IMG/VR virus record: IMGVR_UViG_3300045988_142085
Location: 64,001-128,000 of that record
Source of the DNA: a virus
Direction: 5' to 3' (one strand)
DNA: 64,000 bases
This document shows positions 3,417 to 41,980 of the stretch, piece after piece. Below the pieces are notes generated by a model. That model had not been told where the DNA came from and did not search any database. It saw only the letters and a program-made list of their open reading frames with translations. Both the position numbers and the translations under genes were made by a program. Numbering within the stretch: position 1 is the first letter of the stretch; each line of letters starts with the position of its first letter.

Positions 3417-6077
3417 TTAGTCAACTCCAAAATTATTTAACACAAGATTCTTTCTAGCTTCCGAATCTTTCCCCATGATATCAGATACCATCTTAGCACA
3501 CTTTTCAGCGTCTTCGATAGTAATCTTATATAAATGTCTTTTCTTAGGATCCAAGGTAGATTCCCATAATTGATCGGGATTCATTTCTCCTAATCCTTTT
3601 ATATATTGCACATGCCATTGGTCTTTTTCTTTATATTTAGCTAGCTCTTCTTTCGTATAGATATATTTATGACTATTGCCTTTAACAAGTCTAAACAAAG
3701 GAGGAGCAGCTGCATAAATATAACCGTTCTCGATTAATTCTCGATAATGATTATAGAAGAACGTAGCCCAAAGGCAAATAATATGAGCCCCGTCGTCCGA
3801 CCGTACCCTCGGTTTCCCGATACTTCATAAAGGGACTAGACTATATTTTTATCCGTTCTGGATAGCACCTCTATAGTCGTTACACATTTACGATATTTTT
3901 TTAATATCGACTTAGCACGGTATTGCCATTGCTAGCCATTTCTGGCCCATCAGGTTCTCTTGATTATAGGAGCGCCTTCGCACATAATGTCTTATTCAAC
4001 TCCAACCGTAAGCATATTATTAGTTAATATACACCGCCTTGATAGCGTTAGGGTGCTTGTAATCTCTTGCATTCCTGCAAGGACGACTAATTTTTATTAA
4101 TCAGCATCTGACATTACGACAATCTTGTTATATTTTAAATCTTCGATATTGAATGATTTATCGATGCCGCAACCTAATGCGTTAACAAGGTCTAATAGTT
4201 TGTCAGACGTAACAGTACCGCCATTCTTTTCAGTATTCATTACTTTACCGAAAATAGGTAGCACAGCTTGATATTCGGGGTCACGTGCTTGCTTACTAGA
4301 GCCTCCGGCAGAATCTTAAGAGATATTTGTTTGGACTATATCTTACTTGTTAAAGCAAGTCCTACCGTTTCGATTTTTTAAAAATCTACTCTACTCAGTT
4401 CATATATATACTATATGCTTTTCGATAGTCTCTGAACGCGTTACAGATATCCGTTTTTTTTCCGTTCTGTAATTTCGCTGCGGATAATTTATAGTTTTGA
4501 CAATGTTACTATACCTAAGCCATTACGCTTTGCCATTATTATATCACTATAATAATTTAGTTGCCAATACTAATTTAAACTTCCCCGCAATTAGATAGGT
4601 TTAACGAGAGCGATTCTGTCTTTTACCCTCGACAATAAACAGTTCGCATTTTTTAGGGTCGTCACTATGACAATCGCTAAGTTTTTCTACGACAGTAGAT
4701 TTTAATGCTTTTTTCTGTTTACGTGCATTTTCTCTTGCCTTTTTAGCATCGAGTCTAGCTTTAATACTAAGATTAATTTTACTAGTCAATTGCTTAGCAA
4801 AAGTTTTTTTCTTTTTGAGCTCTTCTCCGAAAGACTCGGAAATTAATTCTTTAACTTGATCTCGAATCTCGGGCATCTGTAAATATAGTTTATTTTGACC
4901 TTCGAATTTTGGTTCGATAGTCTTAATATTTACGATAGCTACAAGACCTTCGATCGCATCGTCTTGTGTTAAATCTTTAATATTTAACTCTTTTAATGCT
5001 TGTACTATACCAGCTTTAAACCCATTTAAATGATCGCCGCCGTTTAAAGTATTGATATTATTTACAAACGTTAAAATCGTATTAGAATATAATCCATCAC
5101 AATAATTTAATACGACATGAACAGATGTATTATCTTTTTCTCCTTTAAATTCTAACGCTTTACCGATAGTTTCTTTAGGAGTAATATCTTTTAGATAATC
5201 TAAAAGAGTCGAAGATTTTAAGTTTACCCATTCTTCGCCTAAATTATATTTGATGGTAAGACCTTCGTTAAGATAACTTAACTGCTTAAGTTTCTTTTCG
5301 AGATCTTTAATATTAATAGGATCTGGATAGATTTCAGGATCTAATCGATATTCAATACGGGTACCCGTCTTTTTGGACTTTCGTCCTTTTTTAAGTTCTT
5401 GACTTAAGATACCTTTTTTAAAGCCAATAGACCATTCATATCCATCACGCCATACTGTGGCATTAAAATATTCGGAAACCGCATTAACGCAAGAACTCCC
5501 AACCAAAATCTTCAATAAAGAACGCTACTTCTTTATCAGTTCTCTTATGAACTTCTTTATGTTTCCATAAAGTTGAGACTATATCTTCTTAGACTTCCAC
5601 TTCGAGCACCAATAACTTGTGCCCTACTCCCTTACGGGATAGTCGTTGAACTTTATATATATACTTTTTAATATATATCTTAGCTGCTGATTACCCGCCC
5701 ATACGGGCTTTCCAGCAATTCAAAAGTTTTTACAACGGCATTTATTTACCGTTTAAGCCACCAGTAGCAGAGACCTGTCCGCTAAGTGAAACGAATTTTC
5801 CTCCAGCATGCAAAGAGCCTACCGCCAATTGTATTTGAGGAATGCCATATTTTTCATTAAGTGCGACTGGGATACCACGACCTTCGTCAGTGATAATCAT
5901 TACTTGAGTTTCGGGATTGTATTCTACAGTTATACATTTACCGAACCCAGTAACGAATTCGTCGACAGCATTGTCGATAATTTCGTGAGCACAATGATTT
6001 GGGCCATTCAAGTACATTTCTTTTCGTAGTCGAACATTGTCCGGATATTCGAGTACTAAAATTTCTTGTTCAGCCAT
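3417..6077 (-). CDS. gyrB: Type II topoisomerase ATPase subunit (GyrB/T4 gp39-like), split into 4 exons by three ORF-less group I-like introns. Approximate exons: 5748-6077, 4625-5503, 4101-4315, 3417-3797.
   Basis: Exon 1 carries the GHKL ATPase motifs (EIIDNAVDE, GRGIPV, LHAGGKF, TGGLNG). Exon 2 runs VGSSCVNAVS...ELFIVEG. Exon 3, translated by hand, reads DSAGGSSKQARDPEYQAVLPIFGKVMN...MSDAD (Toprim). Exon 4 reads DGAHII..YIYAAAPPLF...GLGEMNPDQLWESTLDP. Collinear GyrB homology resumes after each gap. Confidence 0.8.
3798..4100 (-). ncRNA. putative group I intron 3 in gyrB (~300 nt, no ORF)
   Basis: Interrupts DAD|DGAHI. Contains acGACTATAgagg...aaATATAGTCtag. Boundaries approximate. Confidence 0.55.
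4316..4624 (-). ncRNA. putative group I intron 2 in gyrB (~309 nt, no ORF)
   Basis: Interrupts IVEG|DSAGG. The 5' junction GGT|AAAAG is the same as in intron 1, and it has the same GACTAT...ATATAGTC candidate P7. Confidence 0.6.
5504..5747 (-). ncRNA. putative group I intron 1 in gyrB (~244 nt, no ORF)
   Basis: The exon ends on U (GGT|AAA) and the intron ends on G (..GATTTTG|GTT). An internal candidate P7 pairing is acgGACTATccc...agATATAGTCtc. Boundaries are good to about 3 nt. Confidence 0.6.
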
Positions 6078-7916: not shown

Positions 7917-10776
7917 TTACTTTGCCTCCTTATTTAAATAATATGAATATTTATTATTAACATCTTCCGAAGTAATACGAATTTCTTTCGTATTCTCATC
8001 GATGTCGAATAATTTATCGTCGACTAAACCTTGTACGACGCTTTTAAGTGCACGAGCACCTGTTTTTCGATCGTAGGCAAGTTTAGCAATAGTATCGACA
8101 GTATCGTCATCGAAAGTAATTTCGATATCATACATGCCGATCAATTCTTTAATTTGTTTAAAGATTGCGTGTTTTGGAGTCGTTAAAATTTGTTTTAAGT
8201 CTTCCACACTCAATTCTTTAAGCGGGCAAATTACTGGTAATCGACCTAATAATTCTGGAATAATACCAAAGTTATCGAGATCTTCAGGTAAGATATAATC
8301 GATTACGTCGTTATACTTAGATTTTTCTTCCAATACGTCTTTAGATGCTTCACTAGAGAAACCGAGGCCCGTATCTAAATCTTTATTTAACCTTGCCGCA
8401 ATCTTCTTTTCAATACCGGTAAATGCACCACCACAAATAAATAAAATATTAGTAGTATCAATTTCAACAGTAGGAGATGACATAGCAAATCCACCTTGTT
8501 GATCGTTAGACTTAATAGCGACTTTGCCGCCTTCAACGAGTTTTAATAACTCATATTGTACGTCACGACCACCGATATCACTACCTTGAGAGCCAGCATT
8601 TTTAGGATCTCGAGCAGCAATTTTATCGATTTCATCGATATAGACAATACCTTGTTGAGTTCGTTCGACATCGTTACCGGCTTCACGGTATAGTTTGGCT
8701 AAGATGCTATTAACGTCTTCACCAACGACAATTTGTTACCCTATAGGCTTTTTATCCTATAGCTCTTACAGTTACCTGTAAGTTCAGCGTACATTTTTTC
8801 AGTAAAAATATTATACAAACTGAAGTGATCACTCTTGGGAATATTTTATTCTTATCATTAAGGTTCAATTCCTACGCGTTACGGTGTCAAAAGCCTTTTA
8901 AAACTTTTGATTACCTCGGTATTTTCCACATGGGTGCTTCACCGATTTTGATCACTTTAATTACTCTGACTTATTTGTACTTTCATCAGAGAGGGCTCGT
9001 TTTAAAGATAAATATCTTTTCATTTTTCTATCGAGAAAAATAGAAGCATTAGAATATAAATAATCATAAAAAGATAATGTTAAATTTTTCTTATAAAGAA
9101 CTAATTTTTTATATGTGATATAATCATCTATTTTAAATTCAAAATTTGACAGTATTTGATTAATTGATTCTGCTAATAAAGAAGAACCAACAACTATAAC
9201 TGTTTGAATTTTTTTTATATTTTTAGTGATATATCCATTTCCATCAAAATATCCACGGATAAAACTTGAAATAAGATTTTCTTTTATATTTGGCATAAAA
9301 GCATTTTCTGTTTTATTATAAACTACACCTAATTTAAATAAATCTTCTACTAATTCTTTTGACACAATAGATACAACAGATGTTTTTCTATTTTTTCTAT
9401 GCTTAATTTCTAAATTTTTGGCGCCAATATCATTAATAAATTTATTTAAATGGTTATCATCAACAGAGCTTAACTCAATTGATAATCTATTTTTATAAAC
9501 ATTACCATCAGCCATAATAAAACCCAGCCAATATGCTTGTTTTTCTGACTCTATTTCCTTAAAAAAACTTTTATCAAACGTTACATTAGGTCTTTTATAA
9601 GTAAATCTCATATTAACATTTTTCTTTTTTAAGTATGCTGAAAATGATTTAACAGAAATTTTTAATTGTTCTGCTACTTTATACATAGGAATATTTTCTT
9701 CTACATATAGTCTTAATCCTTCAACATATCTAGGATCTTCTATTTCAAAATGGACATTTTTTTTAATTTCTATTCCATTTCGTTTAAAATATCTTCTTAA
9801 AGAACCTACATCTACATTATATTTTTTTGCTAAAGTAGAAGTAGATACTCCTTTATTTTCAGTATATTCTTTTATTGCTTTTTTATATTTATCTTCATTT
9901 TTATATCGTGTCATATTATGACCCTCCTTATGGTCATAATTATATTACACAATATATTTGTCTGTCAACCCCGATTTGGTGAGACTACTTGCATCGACAA
10001 TAACACATGGTCGACCAAGATATTTTGCTAATTGTTTAATTAAGAATGTTTTCAGTTGTGTTATCGTAAAAGTTTTTTATCTTCTACTTCTTATAGTTTC
10101 CTATAAGCTCAGCATACCTTTTTAGCGTATATTTTTTTACCAAACGCTAGAGCGGCCTCGTGGTAGAATTATATTCTTATTTTAAAAATAAGGTTCATCT
10201 ACTATGCGTTGCCCCTGACTAGAATATTATTTCTAGCCTTCGGTTCAGATTAGCATATGCACTTTATGCACTTAGCCTTCCTGCTTAATTCCGCTCAAAT
10301 AATCCAGAAGTTCATGGTTTTTTCTTCTAGAACGGCAAACTTTTACAGCCACCGCAACCCGAGGACCCCAGCATTAATATATTTGATTTCTCAACATCGA
10401 TTCCAACATCTTTTTTCTTAAACGCATTATATTCGAGAAGCTTAGTATGATTAGTAATCGCGACACTAAGAATTTTCTTAGCGTTATCCTGATTGATTAC
10501 ACTTTCATCCAAGTAGGCTTTAATTTCTTTAGGCTTAACATCAGACTTTTGAACTTTAGAAGATTTTTTCTTTTTAGGTTTTTCATCGTCTTCACCATCT
10601 AAAGATAAGCCTAAGATGTCATCGATATCAAAATCACCTTCATCGTCTTGAACTTGAGATGCCATTTTCATGACGCATTCTTGACAAATAGCGATATTTT
10701 TATTAACGGAAGACTGAAAAGTAATATTGTGACTTTTTTGATCGTCGATATCTTTACCGCAATAACTACATTTCAT
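7917..10776 (-). CDS. clpX: ClpX ATP-dependent protease ATPase subunit, split into 3 exons by two introns. Approximate exons: 10351-10776, 9969-10052, 7917-8735.
   Basis: Exon 1 has the zinc-ribbon start MKCSYCGK and ..KSNILMLGSSGCG. Exon 2 (hand translation) reads KTFLIKQLAKYLGRPCVIVDASSLTKSG, completing the Walker A. Exon 3 reads (Q)IVVGEDVNSILAKLYREAGNDVERTQQGIVYIDEIDKIA...NILFICGGAF...GARALKSVV. Confidence 0.8.
8736..9968 (-). mobile_element. group I intron B in clpX carrying a LAGLIDADG homing endonuclease gene
   Basis: A free-standing ORF with its own RBS (aaggaggg) sits inside the gap between clpX exons 2 and 3. It is flanked by ~50 nt and ~225 nt of non-coding intron sequence. Confidence 0.7.
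8961..9914 (-). CDS. LAGLIDADG-family homing endonuclease (317 aa) with N-terminal helix-turn-helix-like region
   Basis: Two LAGLIDADG motifs: WLGFIMADGNV and IRGYFDGNGYI. Confidence 0.8.
   Translation of the reverse strand: MTRYKNEDKYKKAIKEYTENKGVSTSTLAKKYNVDVGSLRRYFKRNGIEIKKNVHFEIEDPRYVEGLRLYVEENIPMYKVAEQLKISVKSFSAYLKKKNVNMRFTYKRPNVTFDKSFFKEIESEKQAYWLGFIMADGNVYKNRLSIELSSVDDNHLNKFINDIGAKNLEIKHRKNRKTSVVSIVSKELVEDLFKLGVVYNKTENAFMPNIKENLISSFIRGYFDGNGYITKNIKKIQTVIVVGSSLLAESINQILSNFEFKIDDYITYKKLVLYKKNLTLSFYDYLYSNASIFLDRKMKRYLSLKRALSDESTNKSE
10053..10350 (-). ncRNA. putative group I intron A in clpX (~298 nt, no ORF), inserted in the Walker A codons
   Basis: The exon-1 frame runs into a stop right after GSSGCG. 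Collinear ClpX sequence resumes at 10052, preceded by an intron-terminal G (..cacaactg|aaaaca). Its 3' end resembles the 3' end of intron B (gctgagcttataggaaactataag versus gctgaacttacaggtaactgtaag). Confidence 0.55.
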
Positions 10777-36675: not shown

Positions 36676-36958
36676 TCATATCTTTGTATTCTTCTTTGAA
36701 TTCATCATAATCTTCAAATTTTACTTCGATGATTTCATAAAGATCTTTATTATTTTTTTGATAATAAATATATAATGTTAATTGATGTTCATTATTTTTG
36801 TCGAATTCGATGCGTTCAATTACTTCTAATTTAACCATTATTTTATTAAGATATAGAAGCATACTACCGCAATTACATTGAGATATCAATACTTCTAATT
36901 TTGATATACGATCATATTTTTCTTTGTCGAATTTTTCTTTACAATATAAATGTTTCAT
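36623..36958 (-). CDS. hypothetical protein
   Basis: ORF in array. Confidence 0.5.
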   Translation of the reverse strand: MKHLYCKEKFDKEKYDRISKLEVLISQCNCGSMLLYLNKIMVKLEVIERIEFDKNNEHQLTLYIYYQKNNKDLYEIIEVKFEDYDEFKEEYKDMIGDIFCYTFINEETNYV

Positions 36959-36974
36959 ATGCGTCCTTTCTTCA

Positions 36975-37196
36975 TTAATTTTTTAGTTCAGATTTTCTAA
37001 CATTACCATCTAAATCGACTACAAATCCTTTTGGAATAATCCATTGATCTTTTGGAGCAATCGGTAAAATACCGATTTCGTCGATATATTTAAACTCATC
37101 TTCGGTTAATCCTTTACCGGTCATAATTTGATAATGAGAAATTAATTTTCCGCCCGGTAATATTTTATTTTTAATTACATGGTTATAGTTTTTCAT
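36975..37196 (-). CDS. hypothetical protein (73 aa), first gene after the large non-coding region
   Basis: RBS aaggag 8 nt upstream of the ATG. Confidence 0.5.
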   Translation of the reverse strand: MKNYNHVIKNKILPGGKLISHYQIMTGKGLTEDEFKYIDEIGILPIAPKDQWIIPKGFVVDLDGNVRKSELKN

Positions 37197-37482
37197 TTTG
37201 TTTACTCCTTTATGATATAATAATATAATTAATTATGTTTGAATTTAAAATAATAAAATCGAGCCGCTATTACACATCTCTTTATTTAACTCTTAATATA
37301 TATTTAATTATAACTACCTATATAATAATAATATAATACTCTATACATTTATTATACTATGATTAATTTACTATTATACTAGTAATATTTATATAATTGT
37401 TTATGTTATATGTTATTATAATAATATATTAGCGTAACTGGTCGGCTTTAGCCGAACTGTTGCTGTCAATTATATTAAATAA

Positions 37483-37870
37483 GGTTTGAAGTATTGTAGC
37501 TAGTTTATTTTAAAAACAATACGAAAACAAATGAATTAGGTAAGTAGAGATATGTTTCAATATATTAATTAAAATATTAAAATTAACCAAAAACACTTGA
37601 AATAGAACGGTTGTAGAGTGTTTCTGCCCCTCTTTGTCTCAAAAAATAGAAAACACTCAAAAATATCAATAATAAGCAGGGTTTGAAGTATTATAGTAGA
37701 TTAAATGCTTAAAATATTAAAATGAGTAAAAAATATGCAATTAAGGTAGATGTGAGAGTGTTATATATATAGTCTAAAACTTAAAATAGCCTAATATTGC
37801 TTTAAAAACGGTGTGAGATAAGTGTTTCCTACCCTCCTCCCCCACCCAGCAAGCAATACTACACTTGCAG
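37483..37870. repeat. tandem direct repeat, 2 copies of a ~195-nt unit
   Basis: GGTTTGAAGTATTRTAGTAG.., ..AATTARGTARRTRGAGA..GTT and ..AACGGTKTRAGA..GTGTTTC.. recur with a period of about 196 nt. Confidence 0.6.
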
Positions 37871-38380
37871 GATGTTGTCGTCGGGGCGCTCGTGAGGCGA
37901 CAGCGGGCTTTATTATTTTTTTTATTTATTATATATATAGTATATATAGCCTAAGTTATATAATAGTATAAGCTACGCAATAATTAAAGGCGGTGCCTCT
38001 AAGACTCTTGTTATTTAAAAGGCATTAATCTGTGTTATAGTATTATATAGACAGCCTTAATATTATATTATATATATGTTAAATAATAATATATCAGTCT
38101 ATATACGAGGCGCCAAGTCCTCTCTTAACACACGGGAATTGGCTCAATCAGGTGACGGTTATTTAAGAAATAATCTATACTTAATAATTATACAACAAAT
38201 GTATAATCCATTTAGGTTATCCTATTATATACTATAGATATAATAAATTAATACTAAGATTAAAAAAGGTTAGATAAAATCTACATTTTTAGCGACGATA
38301 TTTTTTGATAAAAAAATACCAAAAAATATCACGAATTTCTATTATACAAAAATAATGTATAAATAATTATTTTAATATTT

Positions 38381-38506
38381 TTAACCCGCTACACAACCAT
38401 AGATTGTAATATACCGGTGTAACAAGTTACACCGCTCCGCAATTTTTAATATAAAATAATATAACCAAGGCCCCCTGAAATAAATTCAGCAGGGTCTTTT
38501 CTTTAT
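38381..38506 (+). ncRNA. sRNA-like unit 1: TTAACCCGC box, TGTAATAT -10, 8-bp hairpin, intrinsic terminator
   Basis: TTAACCCGC at 38381, TGTAATAT at 38405, hairpin cggtgtaa/ttacaccg, terminator ccctgaa..ttcaggg followed by TCTTTTCTTT. Confidence 0.45.
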
Positions 38507-38569
38507 ATTATTATATATATAATATAATAAACACTAACAATTAAAATAAAAAAATTATTTTTATTTTTT

Positions 38570-38682
38570 TTAACCCGCGGTGCTAACTTAACATGTAATA
38601 TACCGGTGAACGACAGTTCACCGCTTCCACTCACTTAAATATATAATAATCCTCAGAATAAAATCTGAGGATATTTTTTTTG
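38570..38682 (+). ncRNA. sRNA-like unit 2 (same architecture as unit 1)
   Basis: TTAACCCGC at 38570, TGTAATAT, hairpin cggtgaac/gttcaccg, terminator cctcaga..tctgagg followed by ATATTTTTTTT. Confidence 0.45.
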
Positions 38683-38689
38683 GAATTAA

Positions 38690-38787
38690 TTAACCCGCTT
38701 CGCTAATATACTACGTAATATACTAGTGGACGCAGTCCACTACTTCAGAACCTAAGCATCCTGACCTAACGGCCAGGATTTTTTCAT
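38690..38787 (+). ncRNA. sRNA-like unit 3 (same architecture as units 1 and 2)
   Basis: TTAACCCGC at 38690, CGTAATAT, hairpin tagtggac/gtccacta, terminator atcctg..caggat followed by TTTTTC. Confidence 0.45.
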
Positions 38788-39960
38788 TATTAAGCATAAA
38801 CAAAGTTGGCCCATTTTAAAAATGCTCCAAACCCTTACTCACGTAATCTGCTGTGAAGATAAACAACTCGCAGAGGATCGTACACGAATAACCGTTTAAC
38901 GTATTCGGGCCTTAGCCCTCGATACTACTTTATATATAATATATATATAATTATTCTAATATTATTTAAAGATTTAAATAAGCGTCACTATTATTATCTA
39001 AATATAATAATTTATTTTAATATAATTAAAAAACCGTTCGCCTAAAATATTCGGTGTTCATTCTCTCTATCCATAACACCTAGTAAAAGAGGTAACAGTA
39101 TAACGCCGGAACCAGAGCAATAAAATTCCAGCTAACTGGTTAGAGCTTTCAAACTCTAACAACTTGGAATGATTAGTACTCGATAATAATTGTATCCTAA
39201 TAATTAATATTAATTATTATAAATTAATCTCGCACTAAGCAGAGCCTTCGTCACGAACTATAACACAGAAAATTGTAATTACGCTACGCTAATACAACCA
39301 GCCAACTTCGCTGCGCTATCTTTCTCTGGATCGGATCAAGACATTCTTTTATAATATATATAATTTAATAAAAGAATCAAAAGGGATTCGCCACCTAATA
39401 TAACCTTCGCCCCTAAATTAAATCCGGGGTCTCAGAACATATATTCCTTCGGAAATAGCCGGCGGCTCAAAATAATTGAATTATTTAAATCCAATTATAA
39501 TCACTGTTGCTCACCTAATTGAATAACTAGCAATAGTGTCCTATATAATATATATACTAATACTTAATTAATAATATACTTCATATATTATTATTAATAA
39601 CTAACATTACTTTTAAATAAAAAGTAATACAAAATACATATGGGGGGCGAAAAATATTCGAAATTTTATAACCTAAAGTTTCAGATTTTTCAGCCCGGAT
39701 TTTCGCTTTTATATATAGTACGACATAGTATACCGCTCACGGTCGTCCTCGCTAACGCTCGTTCCTTACCTACAGCTCAGTCGCAAGCTCCTTTCGCTTT
39801 CGGGATGCGTTTGCTATACGGCCCTCCGGGCCTCCATTATACTATACATATAGATAGCTTAAGGCAGGCGCTTTAATCGGTCGCTCCCGCTCCCTCTTCG
39901 CTTCTTTATCTAACCTATCTATATCCTTACGGATCGTAGCTAAAAGCTTAATACTAATAA

Positions 39961-40320
39961 CTTACTTCTCTTAATAAGAGAAGATAACAAGAGAACTTAA
40001 TATACTATATACATATATAATAAACGCTCGCTACCGCTCGCTTCTAATATAAATATAATATATATAATAATAAATACTTACTTTCTTAGGAAGAAAGATA
40101 ACAAAGAAGATATACGCTCGCTTCGCTCGCTCTTAATATAAATAATAAATACACACTTACTCTCTTAGAAAGAGAGTAACAGAGAACTCTAATAATAAAT
40201 AATAAACTGCTTACTTCTCTAAAGAGAAGATAACAAGAGACACATATACGGCTCGCTTATGCTCGCCTTGTTAAATAAATAAAATGAATATGCTTACTCT
40301 CTTAACAAGAGAGATAACAG
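39961..40320. repeat. array of five ~25-nt polypyrimidine/polypurine hairpins (cTTACTYTCTTa-N3-aAGARAGATAAC, each followed by AAGAGAA) interleaved with CGCTCGCT..CGCTCGCT motifs. Iteron-like, possibly an origin.
   Basis: Hairpins at 39961, 40077, 40155, 40209 and 40293. Their stems covary (cttctctta/taagagaag, ctttctt/aagaaag, ctctctt/aagagag). Confidence 0.55.
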
Positions 40321-40751
40321 AGAATATTATAACGGCCGGCTCACGTGCGTTCGCACGGCCTACTATACAAAATAAGAGATCTACGCTCAGCTCGCATTCG
40401 CTCGCTTCGCTTATAGAGCGCTCGTGTGGCTTTATTAAGCAGTAACAACTTCACGCTATAAGTAATCATAGCCACCCAATTAAATATCATATACTGACGC
40501 ATATGATATTCAAAAAAAATAATTTTAGTACATACATATATATTGGATTAAAACCATACTCCAATATATATGTATATATTAAATAAATTTTAAAAGAGCA
40601 AGCCGTCCTTTATATATACAGGACACCGCATCAAAAAAATATAGCTTTAGTCGGGAGCCATATTAATATTATTTATTTAAATAAAAATAAGGTTTAGATA
40701 ACAGATGCGACCCACTCCCGTGTGCTTTTCCATTATCTAAACCTTTAATAA

Positions 40752-41234
40752 CTAGCCTTCAGCTTGAGCTTCTTTAGCTTGGTTAGATACCATAACGATA
40801 TCATCGCTACCATCACCAGTAGAACCGAAAGATTTCTTAATAGAACGAATTTCATCGCTCTTAGTTAATTCGCCCCAGGATGCTTTTGCTTCGTCTACGA
40901 TGACACTAGTGCCACCAATTCCAAGCTCAGCAACCTTTTTAAGGCCACCAAAGAGACCTTTGGATACAACTTTAATACCGCCAATGCCAGCATCTTTAGT
41001 AATGCCAGCAACGATACCTAATTTCTTTCCGCCCCAGTTCACAATGCCACCAGTAGTAGCTTTGAATTTTGCCATTTTGTAGGCAGAAAGAATATCTTCT
41101 ACGACTGCATCGTCGCATTCTACTGTAAGAACTGTGCCATCTTGTGTGACACTTGCGTTGAATTCTTCAGTAGCTTTTTCATTGATATAATTAAGGATTT
41201 CTAAGTTTTCGTTTGTAATCTTAAATTGAGCCAT
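40752..41234 (-). CDS. hypothetical virion-block protein (160 aa, Gly-rich)
   Basis: ORF in the higher-GC block. The start is preceded by a terminator/promoter-like cassette. Confidence 0.55.
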   Translation of the reverse strand: MAQFKITNENLEILNYINEKATEEFNASVTQDGTVLTVECDDAVVEDILSAYKMAKFKATTGGIVNWGGKKLGIVAGITKDAGIGGIKVVSKGLFGGLKKVAELGIGGTSVIVDEAKASWGELTKSDEIRSIKKSFGSTGDGSDDIVMVSNQAKEAQAEG

Positions 41235-41290: not shown

Positions 41291-41980
41291 TTAAAATACA
41301 CCAGACACGTCTTCAACTTTCTTATTCGGGATTTCACGAACAAGATTAAATGTTTTGCTAGCCAAAGCATTAATTGCACGGCTAGAAGCACTTTCTGGAC
41401 GTTTAGCATACAAGTCACCATTGTGACGAGTAGCTACAGGGTAAGAGTAGTTACCCTTCATACCATTGGCGAATTTCACGCCATCTTCTGTAATACCATC
41501 TTTGAATACCAGCATTTGACCTTCTTCAAGTGCAACGCCTTCAGGCACTACTAGGTCAAAACCAGATAATTCAGATTGACGTGTGATTCGAAGATTAATG
41601 CCAGCTTCTTTGCTAGCTTCAAGAGCTTCTGCTAAACGAGTATAAGCAGTTGTATGCTCAGGAGTGTCATATTCGCTAGTAGCGAGTTCTGCACTTTCTT
41701 CAGGAGTATTGCCTTTAGCCAACAAGCCCATCAACTGATAAGTCTTGATAGCAACAGAATCAGGCAATACCATTTGTGCTGTCATATTGTCATATTCAGC
41801 ACGACGAGAAACAAAAAGATTTACTGCATCAGCAGTATGAAGAATTGCTACCGGCACAAACGCACCTTCGCGTTTCGCCAATTTAGCAACGTTTTCTTTG
41901 CCCCATGCTTGGAATGCACGAGCAAATCCGCCAAGTTTTGTACCAGCGATAACAGATGTAATGATAATGTTTTTAGCCAT
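41291..41980 (-). CDS. hypothetical virion-block protein (229 aa)
   Basis: Strong RBS ttaaggaggctattatcATG. A ~400-nt structured leader lies upstream. Confidence 0.6.
   Translation of the reverse strand: MAKNIIITSVIAGTKLGGFARAFQAWGKENVAKLAKREGAFVPVAILHTADAVNLFVSRRAEYDNMTAQMVLPDSVAIKTYQLMGLLAKGNTPEESAELATSEYDTPEHTTAYTRLAEALEASKEAGINLRITRQSELSGFDLVVPEGVALEEGQMLVFKDGITEDGVKFANGMKGNYSYPVATRHNGDLYAKRPESASSRAINALASKTFNLVREIPNKKVEDVSGVF

Follow-up and report, generated by a model that had tools for sequence, protein, structure and literature searches.

What is the function of three tandem hairpin units that lie on the strand opposite to the genes of a large phage genome? The units were found in a 64,000-nucleotide stretch of viral DNA (positions 64,001 to 128,000 of IMG/VR record IMGVR_UViG_3300045988_142085), which as a whole is called the window in the following. 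An earlier note on this DNA had described them as candidate phage small RNAs, each with its own promoter, hairpin and terminator. We find that these cassettes form a new family, restricted to one lineage, whose general kind is known; their stems are kept paired by selection and their terminators are specific for plus-strand transcription. Judged from the sequence, we tentatively favour the reading, possible rather than probable, that the units are small RNA genes on the plus strand and that the stem is within the RNA. The three units, at 38381-38505, 38570-38682 and 38690-38785 of the plus strand, consist of the following elements.

38340-38380, plus strand: A/T-rich tract before unit 1, UP-element-like, with counterparts before units 2 and 3
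38381-38389, plus strand: box TTAACCCGC of unit 1, clade-specific
38406-38414, plus strand: 9-mer G-TAATATA-C of unit 1, with the -10-like TAATAT at 38407-38412
38415-38423/38426-38434, plus strand: stem CGGTGTAAC/GTTACACCG of unit 1 (model R1, 49.1 bits)
38468-38497, T-run to 38505, plus strand: terminator of unit 1, whose imperfect stem includes a G·U pair and is followed by TTTTCTTT
38570-38578, plus strand: box TTAACCCGC of unit 2
38595-38603, plus strand: 9-mer G-TAATATA-C of unit 2
38604-38611/38616-38623, plus strand: stem CGGTGAAC/GTTCACCG of unit 2, 8 bp with loop GACA (R1, 44.8 bits)
38649-38672, tail to 38682, plus strand: terminator of unit 2, 9-bp stem and T8
38690-38698, plus strand: box TTAACCCGC of unit 3
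38715-38723, plus strand: 9-mer G-TAATATA-C of unit 3
38724-38731/38735-38742, plus strand: stem TAGTGGAC/GTCCACTA of unit 3, 8 bp with loop GCA (R1, 34.6 bits)
38758-38779, tail to 38785, plus strand: terminator of unit 3 with T6, directly adjoining the 3' end of OTKONC RNA, which is convergent with it

All elements of the layout described in the earlier note were recovered on the plus strand at their positions. Each unit begins with the box TTAACCCGC, followed at a distance of 17 nt (box to TAATAT, identical in all three) by G-TAATATA-C, a perfect stem of 8-9 bp, a spacer of 15-33 nt (33, 25 and 15 nt in units 1, 2 and 3, respectively) and an intrinsic terminator. Further upstream, from about -27 to -55 as counted from TAATAT, the A/T content exceeds 90% in a profile of 26 + 52 distinct units. 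TTAACCCGC and GTAATATAC occur three times apiece in the 64 kb, in the units only, and a covariance model built from the units matched just the three unit copies in the window. The stem of unit 1 has 9 bp and the loop AA or, alternatively, 8 bp and the loop CAAG; the stem of unit 3 differs from those of units 1 and 2 by three compensatory pair changes. Of distinct hairpins with perfect stems of 8 bp or more and four or more G/C per arm, the window has seven as against 0.32 in shuffled sequences, and three of the seven are the unit stems. When folded in full, as the earlier note had proposed, each unit gives the two expected hairpins with z = -3.9 to -6.9.

Two other explanations of the units were considered and rejected. 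Small open reading frames (ORFs) do not account for them, as no plus-strand ATG with a Shine-Dalgarno sequence is found in the units and the sole listed ORF is a 43-aa minus-strand frame starting with GTG. A CRISPR-like repeat-spacer array or an RNA anti-CRISPR is at odds with spacers that are kept among relatives instead of being hypervariable, and that have lengths of 7-67 nt. An Rfam scan of 36900-41000 (E <= 1) returned only OTKONC, besides two chance microRNA matches.

OTKONC is an orphan motif from metagenomes with no assigned function. Its core, which is independent of the units, served as an anchor for finding relatives.

38792-38962, minus strand: OTKONC RNA (Rfam RF03053), full-length, 170.3 bits as compared with a gathering threshold of 141.4, E = 2.8e-28

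The OTKONC core retrieved 37 viral contigs of up to 236 kb. In all 34 contigs that are long enough the cassette is present, amounting to 94 copies, and in these it forms 2-3 tandem copies of constant order and orientation to the left of OTKONC. The terminator of the nearest unit always abuts OTKONC, which is always convergent with the cassette. A further 113 copies of the lineage came from metagenome contigs by a scan in which the outer stem was fixed and the inner 9-11 nt were left free.

The comparison of these copies showed which parts of the unit are under constraint. G-TAATATA-C is identical in 94/94 copies, save for a C9->T exchange in three, and the stem base CGGTG/CACCG and its flanks, with CT(Y) directly 3' of the stem, are nearly invariant. 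This invariance suggests that the sequence is also read by some factor. The stem occurs in several variants (CGGTG(-/A/T)AAC, CGATG..., TAGTGAAC, TAGTGGAC), as do the loops (GAA, GCA, TAC, AA, GACA, GTA, ACA and rarer ones; mostly 3 nt, also 2 or 4 nt). In an alignment of 48 distinct rows all 409 of 409 stem cells were Watson-Crick pairs. Five of the nine pairs were altered on both sides and four were invariant, with neither one-sided changes nor unpaired positions; the covariation score was matched by none of 500 shuffles, and in slid registers pairing dropped to 25-48%. The compensatory stem changes reported earlier are therefore real.

A perfect palindrome that overlaps the -10 and start region could also be a duplex operator, at which a dimeric repressor would silence three strong early promoters following an Aca/Cro/LexA-like logic. 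Unit 2 contains GAAC-N4-GTTC, which we take to be the core of the Gram-positive LexA box, and the unrelated GC-rich viral contig L265 has at 2436-2516 three tandem AACGGTGAAC-N3-GTTCACCGTT palindromes of fixed spacing, operator- or iteron-like sites with an arm nearly the same as the unit arm. However, the LexA-type N4 spacing is found in 7-16 copies only. The arm sequences CGGTG, CGATG and TAGTG occur together within one genome and are always paired, the distance between the outer half-sites (CGGTG to CACCG) is 9, 10 or 11 bp in single genomes, and bases inserted into the stem are always complementary. Since the arms differ, the spacing varies and the insertions are complementary, we conclude that selection acts on intrastrand pairing and not on a symmetric dimer site. 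The operator is thus quite improbable.

The terminator is conserved as well. A GC-rich hairpin followed by a T-run is present in all three units and in about 90/94 relatives. Among 35 distinct terminator hairpins, 27 fold better as plus-strand RNA and seven as minus-strand RNA, and the 9-nt tail contains 7.4 T on the plus strand versus 4.9 on the minus strand. Most terminator stems have G·U pairs, which would be A·C on the opposite strand, and several have UUCG loops. Because folding, T tail and G·U pairs are strand-specific, the terminators appear to have been selected to stop plus-strand transcription; the intrinsic terminators of the earlier note are thereby confirmed as specific for the plus strand. 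Short plus-strand transcripts are consequently plausible, and their simplest source would be the -10-like element of each unit.

This element, TAATAT, is invariant and has A at position 2 and T at position 6. The box TTAACCCGC is found only in the clade of the window, with its first base 26 nt before TAATAT. In the sister clade, which is without the box, WTAACT begins 22 nt before TAATAT, four bases closer. The -35-like hexamer is separated from TAATAT by 20 bp in the window clade; the sister clade has TTAACT at a distance of 16 bp. A TAnnAT-like hexamer precedes the 9-mer by 2-4 nt in many copies, not in all, so that a start inside TAATATA is possible. In the window clade neither TAATAT nor this upstream hexamer has a canonical -35 spacing.

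The earlier note had compared the box to the activator-dependent MotA class of T4 promoters and had suggested searching the genome for further sites. This part of the proposal did not hold, judged by the refuting condition that the earlier note itself had set: the box is clade-specific, is unlike the T4 MotA box and occurs only at the three unit sites in 64 kb, and in whole contigs of ~230 kb the unit 14-mer was confined to the cassette cluster, with the same outcome for a search with the stem only. No MotA or AsiA homologues were among the Pfam/PHROG matches, the searches covering a minority of the genome and of its ORFs. TTAACCC resembles the start of the T3 promoter. A T3/T7-like promoter was nevertheless rejected, as the alignment extends no further, the motif is absent from the sister clade and there are three sites per genome. 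The early promoter of a jumbo-phage virion polymerase, an AT-rich 10-mer centred at -10 that stands before dozens of early operons (PMC7598289), is unlikely, given that the 9-mer has three sites only.

How could the units work as small RNA genes? Each would be a self-contained non-coding mini-gene, antisense to every phage protein gene, with five parts: the A/T tract, the -10-like region, the paired stem-loop, a spacer of 7-67 nt and a strong Rho-independent terminator. A bacterial-type RNA polymerase, probably that of the host, would make RNAs of 50-140 nt that begin with the stem-loop, continue with a short CU-rich linker (CUYC...) and end with the terminator hairpin. The genes of the window have strong Shine-Dalgarno sequences and some of their promoters are of the TTGACA or TATAAT type; these signals are consistent with use of the host RNA polymerase. 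As the stem base, the flanks and the pairing are conserved and the body is not, the most likely role of the stem-loop would be that of a handle, specific in both sequence and structure, to which a protein binds and/or which protects the 5' end. In that case the RNAs would serve as stable decoys or ligands and not as seed-pairing regulators, the 2-3 tandem copies would raise the dose, and the last terminator would also shield the convergent OTKONC gene. Promoter use, start site, action of the stem at the RNA level and function are the parts of this reading that we infer.

Several results weigh against small RNA genes. First, target prediction, as suggested in the earlier note, gave pairing to OTKONC and to 103 translation-initiation regions that was no better than with shuffled sequences, and the spacer between stem and terminator, 7-67 nt long among relatives, is poorly kept in sequence. 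With no target signal and no conserved spacer a seed-pairing small RNA is unlikely; the findings agree better with an RNA that binds a protein or acts as a decoy, or with a promoter element that works purely in cis. Second, a consensus sigma-70 scan flagged none of the three window units, and the geometry of the start is awkward. In sigma-70 promoters the canonical start lies 7 nt downstream of the -10. With TAATAT as -10 the start would be a G that follows a T and is the fifth base in the 5' arm. From that start the RNA would retain a 4-bp stem with -0.6 to -4.2 kcal/mol, which is shuffle-like, and stem positions 1-3, untranscribed from there, hold three of the five compensatory changes. For the full stem to be in the RNA, transcription would have to start within TAATATA, upstream of the stem. 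Third, not one G·U pair or mismatch was seen in the stems of more than 200 copies with about 20 stem/loop variants, as compared with a G·U share of ~10% in the terminators of the same units. Fourth, the loops are mostly cGNAg/cGNNAg, motifs known from extra-stable DNA mini-hairpins (PMC3201870, PMC13037366), whereas the UUCG loops of the terminators are of the RNA type. Among 102 distinct contexts a GNA/GNNA loop is on the plus strand in 64, on the minus strand in 15 and on neither in 23.

The claim of the earlier note that the stem changes are typical of functional RNA can thus be upheld for the covariation itself, but not as a diagnosis of RNA, with G·U pairs missing and positions 1-3 covarying. 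Missing wobble, the cGNAg/cGNNAg loops and the start geometry favour an element that acts at the DNA level, whereas the higher prior for 5' RNA hairpins and the complete anatomy of a small RNA gene favour RNA. On balance, the units of the earlier note are real, paralogous and conserved, and their nature as small RNAs is plausible; the MotA-like promoter class has to be dropped.

We considered two ways in which the stem-loops could act as DNA. In the first, a DNA hairpin or cruciform, or the site of a hairpin-binding factor, at about -4 to +17 would gate the same plus-strand promoters. Initiation would be set by supercoiling or by the factor and could, for example, be on in the freshly injected relaxed DNA and off after the phage gyrase has acted. 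The stem starts 2 nt past the -10-like hexamer, positions upstream of the canonical start covary and G·U pairs are absent from all of the more than 200 copies, which speaks for such a gate. The cGNAg/cGNNAg loops, of the stable DNA mini-hairpin type (PMC3201870, PMC13037366), are closed by C·G, the flanks are AT-rich, and with DNA parameters both strands fold with -6 to -9 kcal/mol and z about -5. Furthermore, the phage has genes of its own for an intron-split GyrB, a GyrA-like protein and SSB, and there is a precedent in the N4 hairpin that, inserted in the rrnB promoter, led to gyrase-dependent shut-off (PMC4496689). On the other hand, regulatory DNA hairpins are rare, arms of 8-9 bp are short for extrusion and the factor is still hypothetical. 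The absence of G·U is based on few independent substitution events, RNA hairpins can have GNA-type loops as well, and the strand of the loop varies, with TAC on the plus strand (GTA on the minus strand) in 15-17 copies. Taken by itself we regard this gate as rather unlikely.

In the second, the units would be N4-like hairpin promoters firing leftward, in gene sense, with a phage RNA polymerase reading the hairpin on the plus (template) strand. Transcription would start at or near the complement of G-TAATATA-C, the RNA would begin with GUAUAUUAC and run on for ~1.2 kb to the early genes at 37196, and the plus-strand terminators would merely stop spurious rightward transcription. Like the three N4 early promoters, the 2-3 copies are clustered just upstream of the early block. 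Conserved and variable stem positions with pairing kept, 3-nt GNA loops mostly on the plus strand and a conserved sequence between hairpin and putative start (cf. PMC4496689) fit as well, and leftward transcription could pass the terminators, since the majority of their hairpins are weak as minus-strand RNA. But the stems have 8-9 bp and not 5-7, the loops 2-4 nt, and the GNA loop is on the other strand in 15-17 copies. Within the ~105 kb examined of the 236-kb genome no gene for an RNA polymerase came up, and the 1322-aa neighbouring ORF, taken as a polymerase candidate, had no matches. The terminator after every unit and the A/T tract are more simply explained by plus-strand units. N4-like promoters are therefore improbable. 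Taking both forms together, promoter DNA hairpins, whether as a supercoil-sensing switch or as N4-style promoters into the early genes, are possible, although clearly a minority view.

The window matches contig ena:ERZ27263288:k119_70580 (236,270 bp). With the exception of three short overlapping ones, all ORFs of at least 100 aa in the window are on the minus strand, which bears out the earlier statement that the units are opposite to the genes. All three units are in an AT-rich island of 3,555 bp without ORFs, bordered by the last gene of the structural/lysis block (40752-41234) and by a run of early-type small genes from 37196. OTKONC is oriented in gene sense and lies within the island upstream of the early genes.

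An ORF-free, AT-rich island at the late/early boundary raises the question of whether the units are cis-acting replication or packaging sites, namely an R-loop or nick-primed origin, an HUH-type nick site or pac sites. In the HUH variant the minus-strand hairpin would be followed by GTATATTAC, which resembles the TATTAC core of Rep nonanucleotides. The island also carries an array of five palindromes, and 13 of 23 related contigs (some of 203-232 kb) end within it. These ends, however, are spread over several different repeats, which points to assembly breaks at repeat families and not to a single physical terminus, and the GC skew has no inflection at the island. GTATATTAC is outside and 3' of the minus-strand stem, unlike the Rep nonamer (TAnTATTAC), which is in the loop, and no HUH or Rep gene was seen. 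A dedicated plus-strand terminator for each copy would also be left unexplained. We consider replication or packaging sites the least probable of the explanations.

The palindrome array is a feature of its own. Its five copies at 39961-40324 of the plus strand form a second family that is conserved in both clades and consists of CTTAC, a 6-7-bp Y-rich arm, a 2-3-nt loop, an R-rich arm and (G)ATAAC-ARAGAA. The stems are perfect, with compensatory arm changes, and CGCT-rich blocks (GCTCGCTTCGCTCGCT) lie between the copies, which may be iterons, pac sites or a further family of hairpins. Similar CGCT-rich sequence accompanies the array at 39740-39800, 40026-40045, 40107-40125 and 40385-40412. In some genomes (L001, L005, L008, L029) a CGCT-rich insert of ~40 nt stands right after the unit stem, flanked by duplicated CACCGCT as in a target duplication or template switch. 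To the left of unit 1, a GC-rich structured segment at 37820-37925 of the plus strand ends in a T-run, and its part from 37885 on (37885-37948) is conserved in both clades; the segment may be the 3' end of a fourth plus-strand non-coding RNA.

The phages concerned form an uncultivated lineage with genomes of 222-242 kb from human-associated metagenomes, and OTKONC belongs to this lineage. For a 160-aa protein whose gene adjoins the island, homologues (at least 71% identical) were confined to the lineage and came from contigs with lengths of 222-242 kb. When the island and four proteins were compared by BLAST with 50,697 phage records, no relative turned up, and the lineage is without a cultured one. 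A scan of genome contigs with the 14-mer gave only chance matches for a host. Most structural proteins have no Pfam/PHROG match, which suggests that the lineage is very divergent. The ORF at 41291-41980 was rejected as a terminase small subunit, the weak match (E = 0.0086) being unconfirmed by Pfam or PDB searches. On the contig carrying the window we identified genes for Pol III alpha, GyrB, a GyrA-like protein, SSB, RecA, a Rad52-like protein, UDG, ThyA, DHFR, Clp protease and ATPase, and a radical-SAM protein.

Other non-coding elements of the window are independent of the cassettes. A group I intron (5555-5780, minus strand; 94 bits) interrupts the gyrB-like gene. In the region 8484-10326 of the minus strand a LAGLIDADG ORF (8961-9914) has sequence without ORFs on both sides, of which the part at 8484-8960 can still be read as AAA+/ClpX-like coding sequence (GIVYIDEIDKI); this suggests a second, undetected intron in a Clp ATPase gene. 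Upstream of a TnpB gene (19780-20991; OrfB_IS605 plus a Cas12f1-like TNB domain), repeated structured elements of ~140 nt are present at 20992-21764 and 23629-24025 of the minus strand. Their hairpins resemble the repeat:anti-repeat duplexes of type II-A CRISPR (GTTTTAGAGCTGTA...TACAGTACTAAAATTAAGG). The elements had no significant Rfam match and might be guide-RNA-like or RNA anti-CRISPR-like.

Whichever reading is true, the analysis supplies a genomic context for the orphan family OTKONC, which in this widespread lineage belongs to a non-coding control island where late and early genes meet. With more than 200 copies, no wobble and an abutting -10-like hexamer, the cassettes are also a clean natural test case for distinguishing RNA hairpins from DNA hairpins. 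If they act as RNA, the phage would make abundant, very small RNAs with a 5' hairpin resembling a protein handle, possibly as decoys. The DNA-hairpin alternative is moderately likely and would be much more interesting than small RNAs. If it is true, extruded, sequence-specific mini-hairpins would control the very first transcription events of the phage, and hairpin-dependent promoter control would no longer be confined to N4 but extend to a second, unrelated phage lineage.

Among phage transcripts, oop RNA and 6S RNA (PR'-tR') of lambda are known to be short and constitutively terminated. The units share with these and with phage small RNAs a (putative) promoter of their own followed by a terminator, a predicted product length below 150 nt, the lack of an ORF and a position in regulatory intergenic DNA, and with oop RNA the antisense orientation to neighbouring genes. 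In contrast to the lambda RNAs, the units come as 2-3 tandem paralogues, their strand is free of downstream genes for at least 25 kb, their body is not conserved, and an invariant stem base stands directly at the -10-like element. Stabilizing 5' structures, such as the ompA 5' hairpin and those of Bacillus, are similar in that a stable hairpin near the presumed 5' end is followed by a single-stranded segment. Stabilizers, however, need structure only, whereas the stem base and flanks of the units are invariant in sequence and without G·U, and the unit hairpin is too near to TAATAT for a canonical start. The T7 promoters A1, A2 and A3 are likewise three strong-looking tandem promoters at the boundary of the early region, but they face the early genes and lack terminators of their own, whereas the units face away from all genes and are each terminated.

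The early promoters P1-P3 of N4 differ from the units in several respects. There is no sequence similarity, and no N4-like polymerase was found in the examined part of the genome. The unit stems have 8-9 bp as compared with 5-7 bp, the loops are 2-4 nt long and the strand of the GNA loop is inconsistent; moreover, the units have a plus-strand terminator within 7-67 nt and are preceded by an A/T tract and a -10-like hexamer. The likeness is in the design. In both cases three copies are clustered close to where the early region begins, each with a small hairpin that has conserved and freely covarying stem positions and with an adjoining conserved sequence. In both, the loops are mostly 3-nt G-N-A loops closed by C·G, which in the N4 promoter hairpin adopt a sheared G:A geometry (PMC4496689). 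Gyrase and SSB are available to both phages, borrowed from the host by N4 and encoded by the phage itself here.

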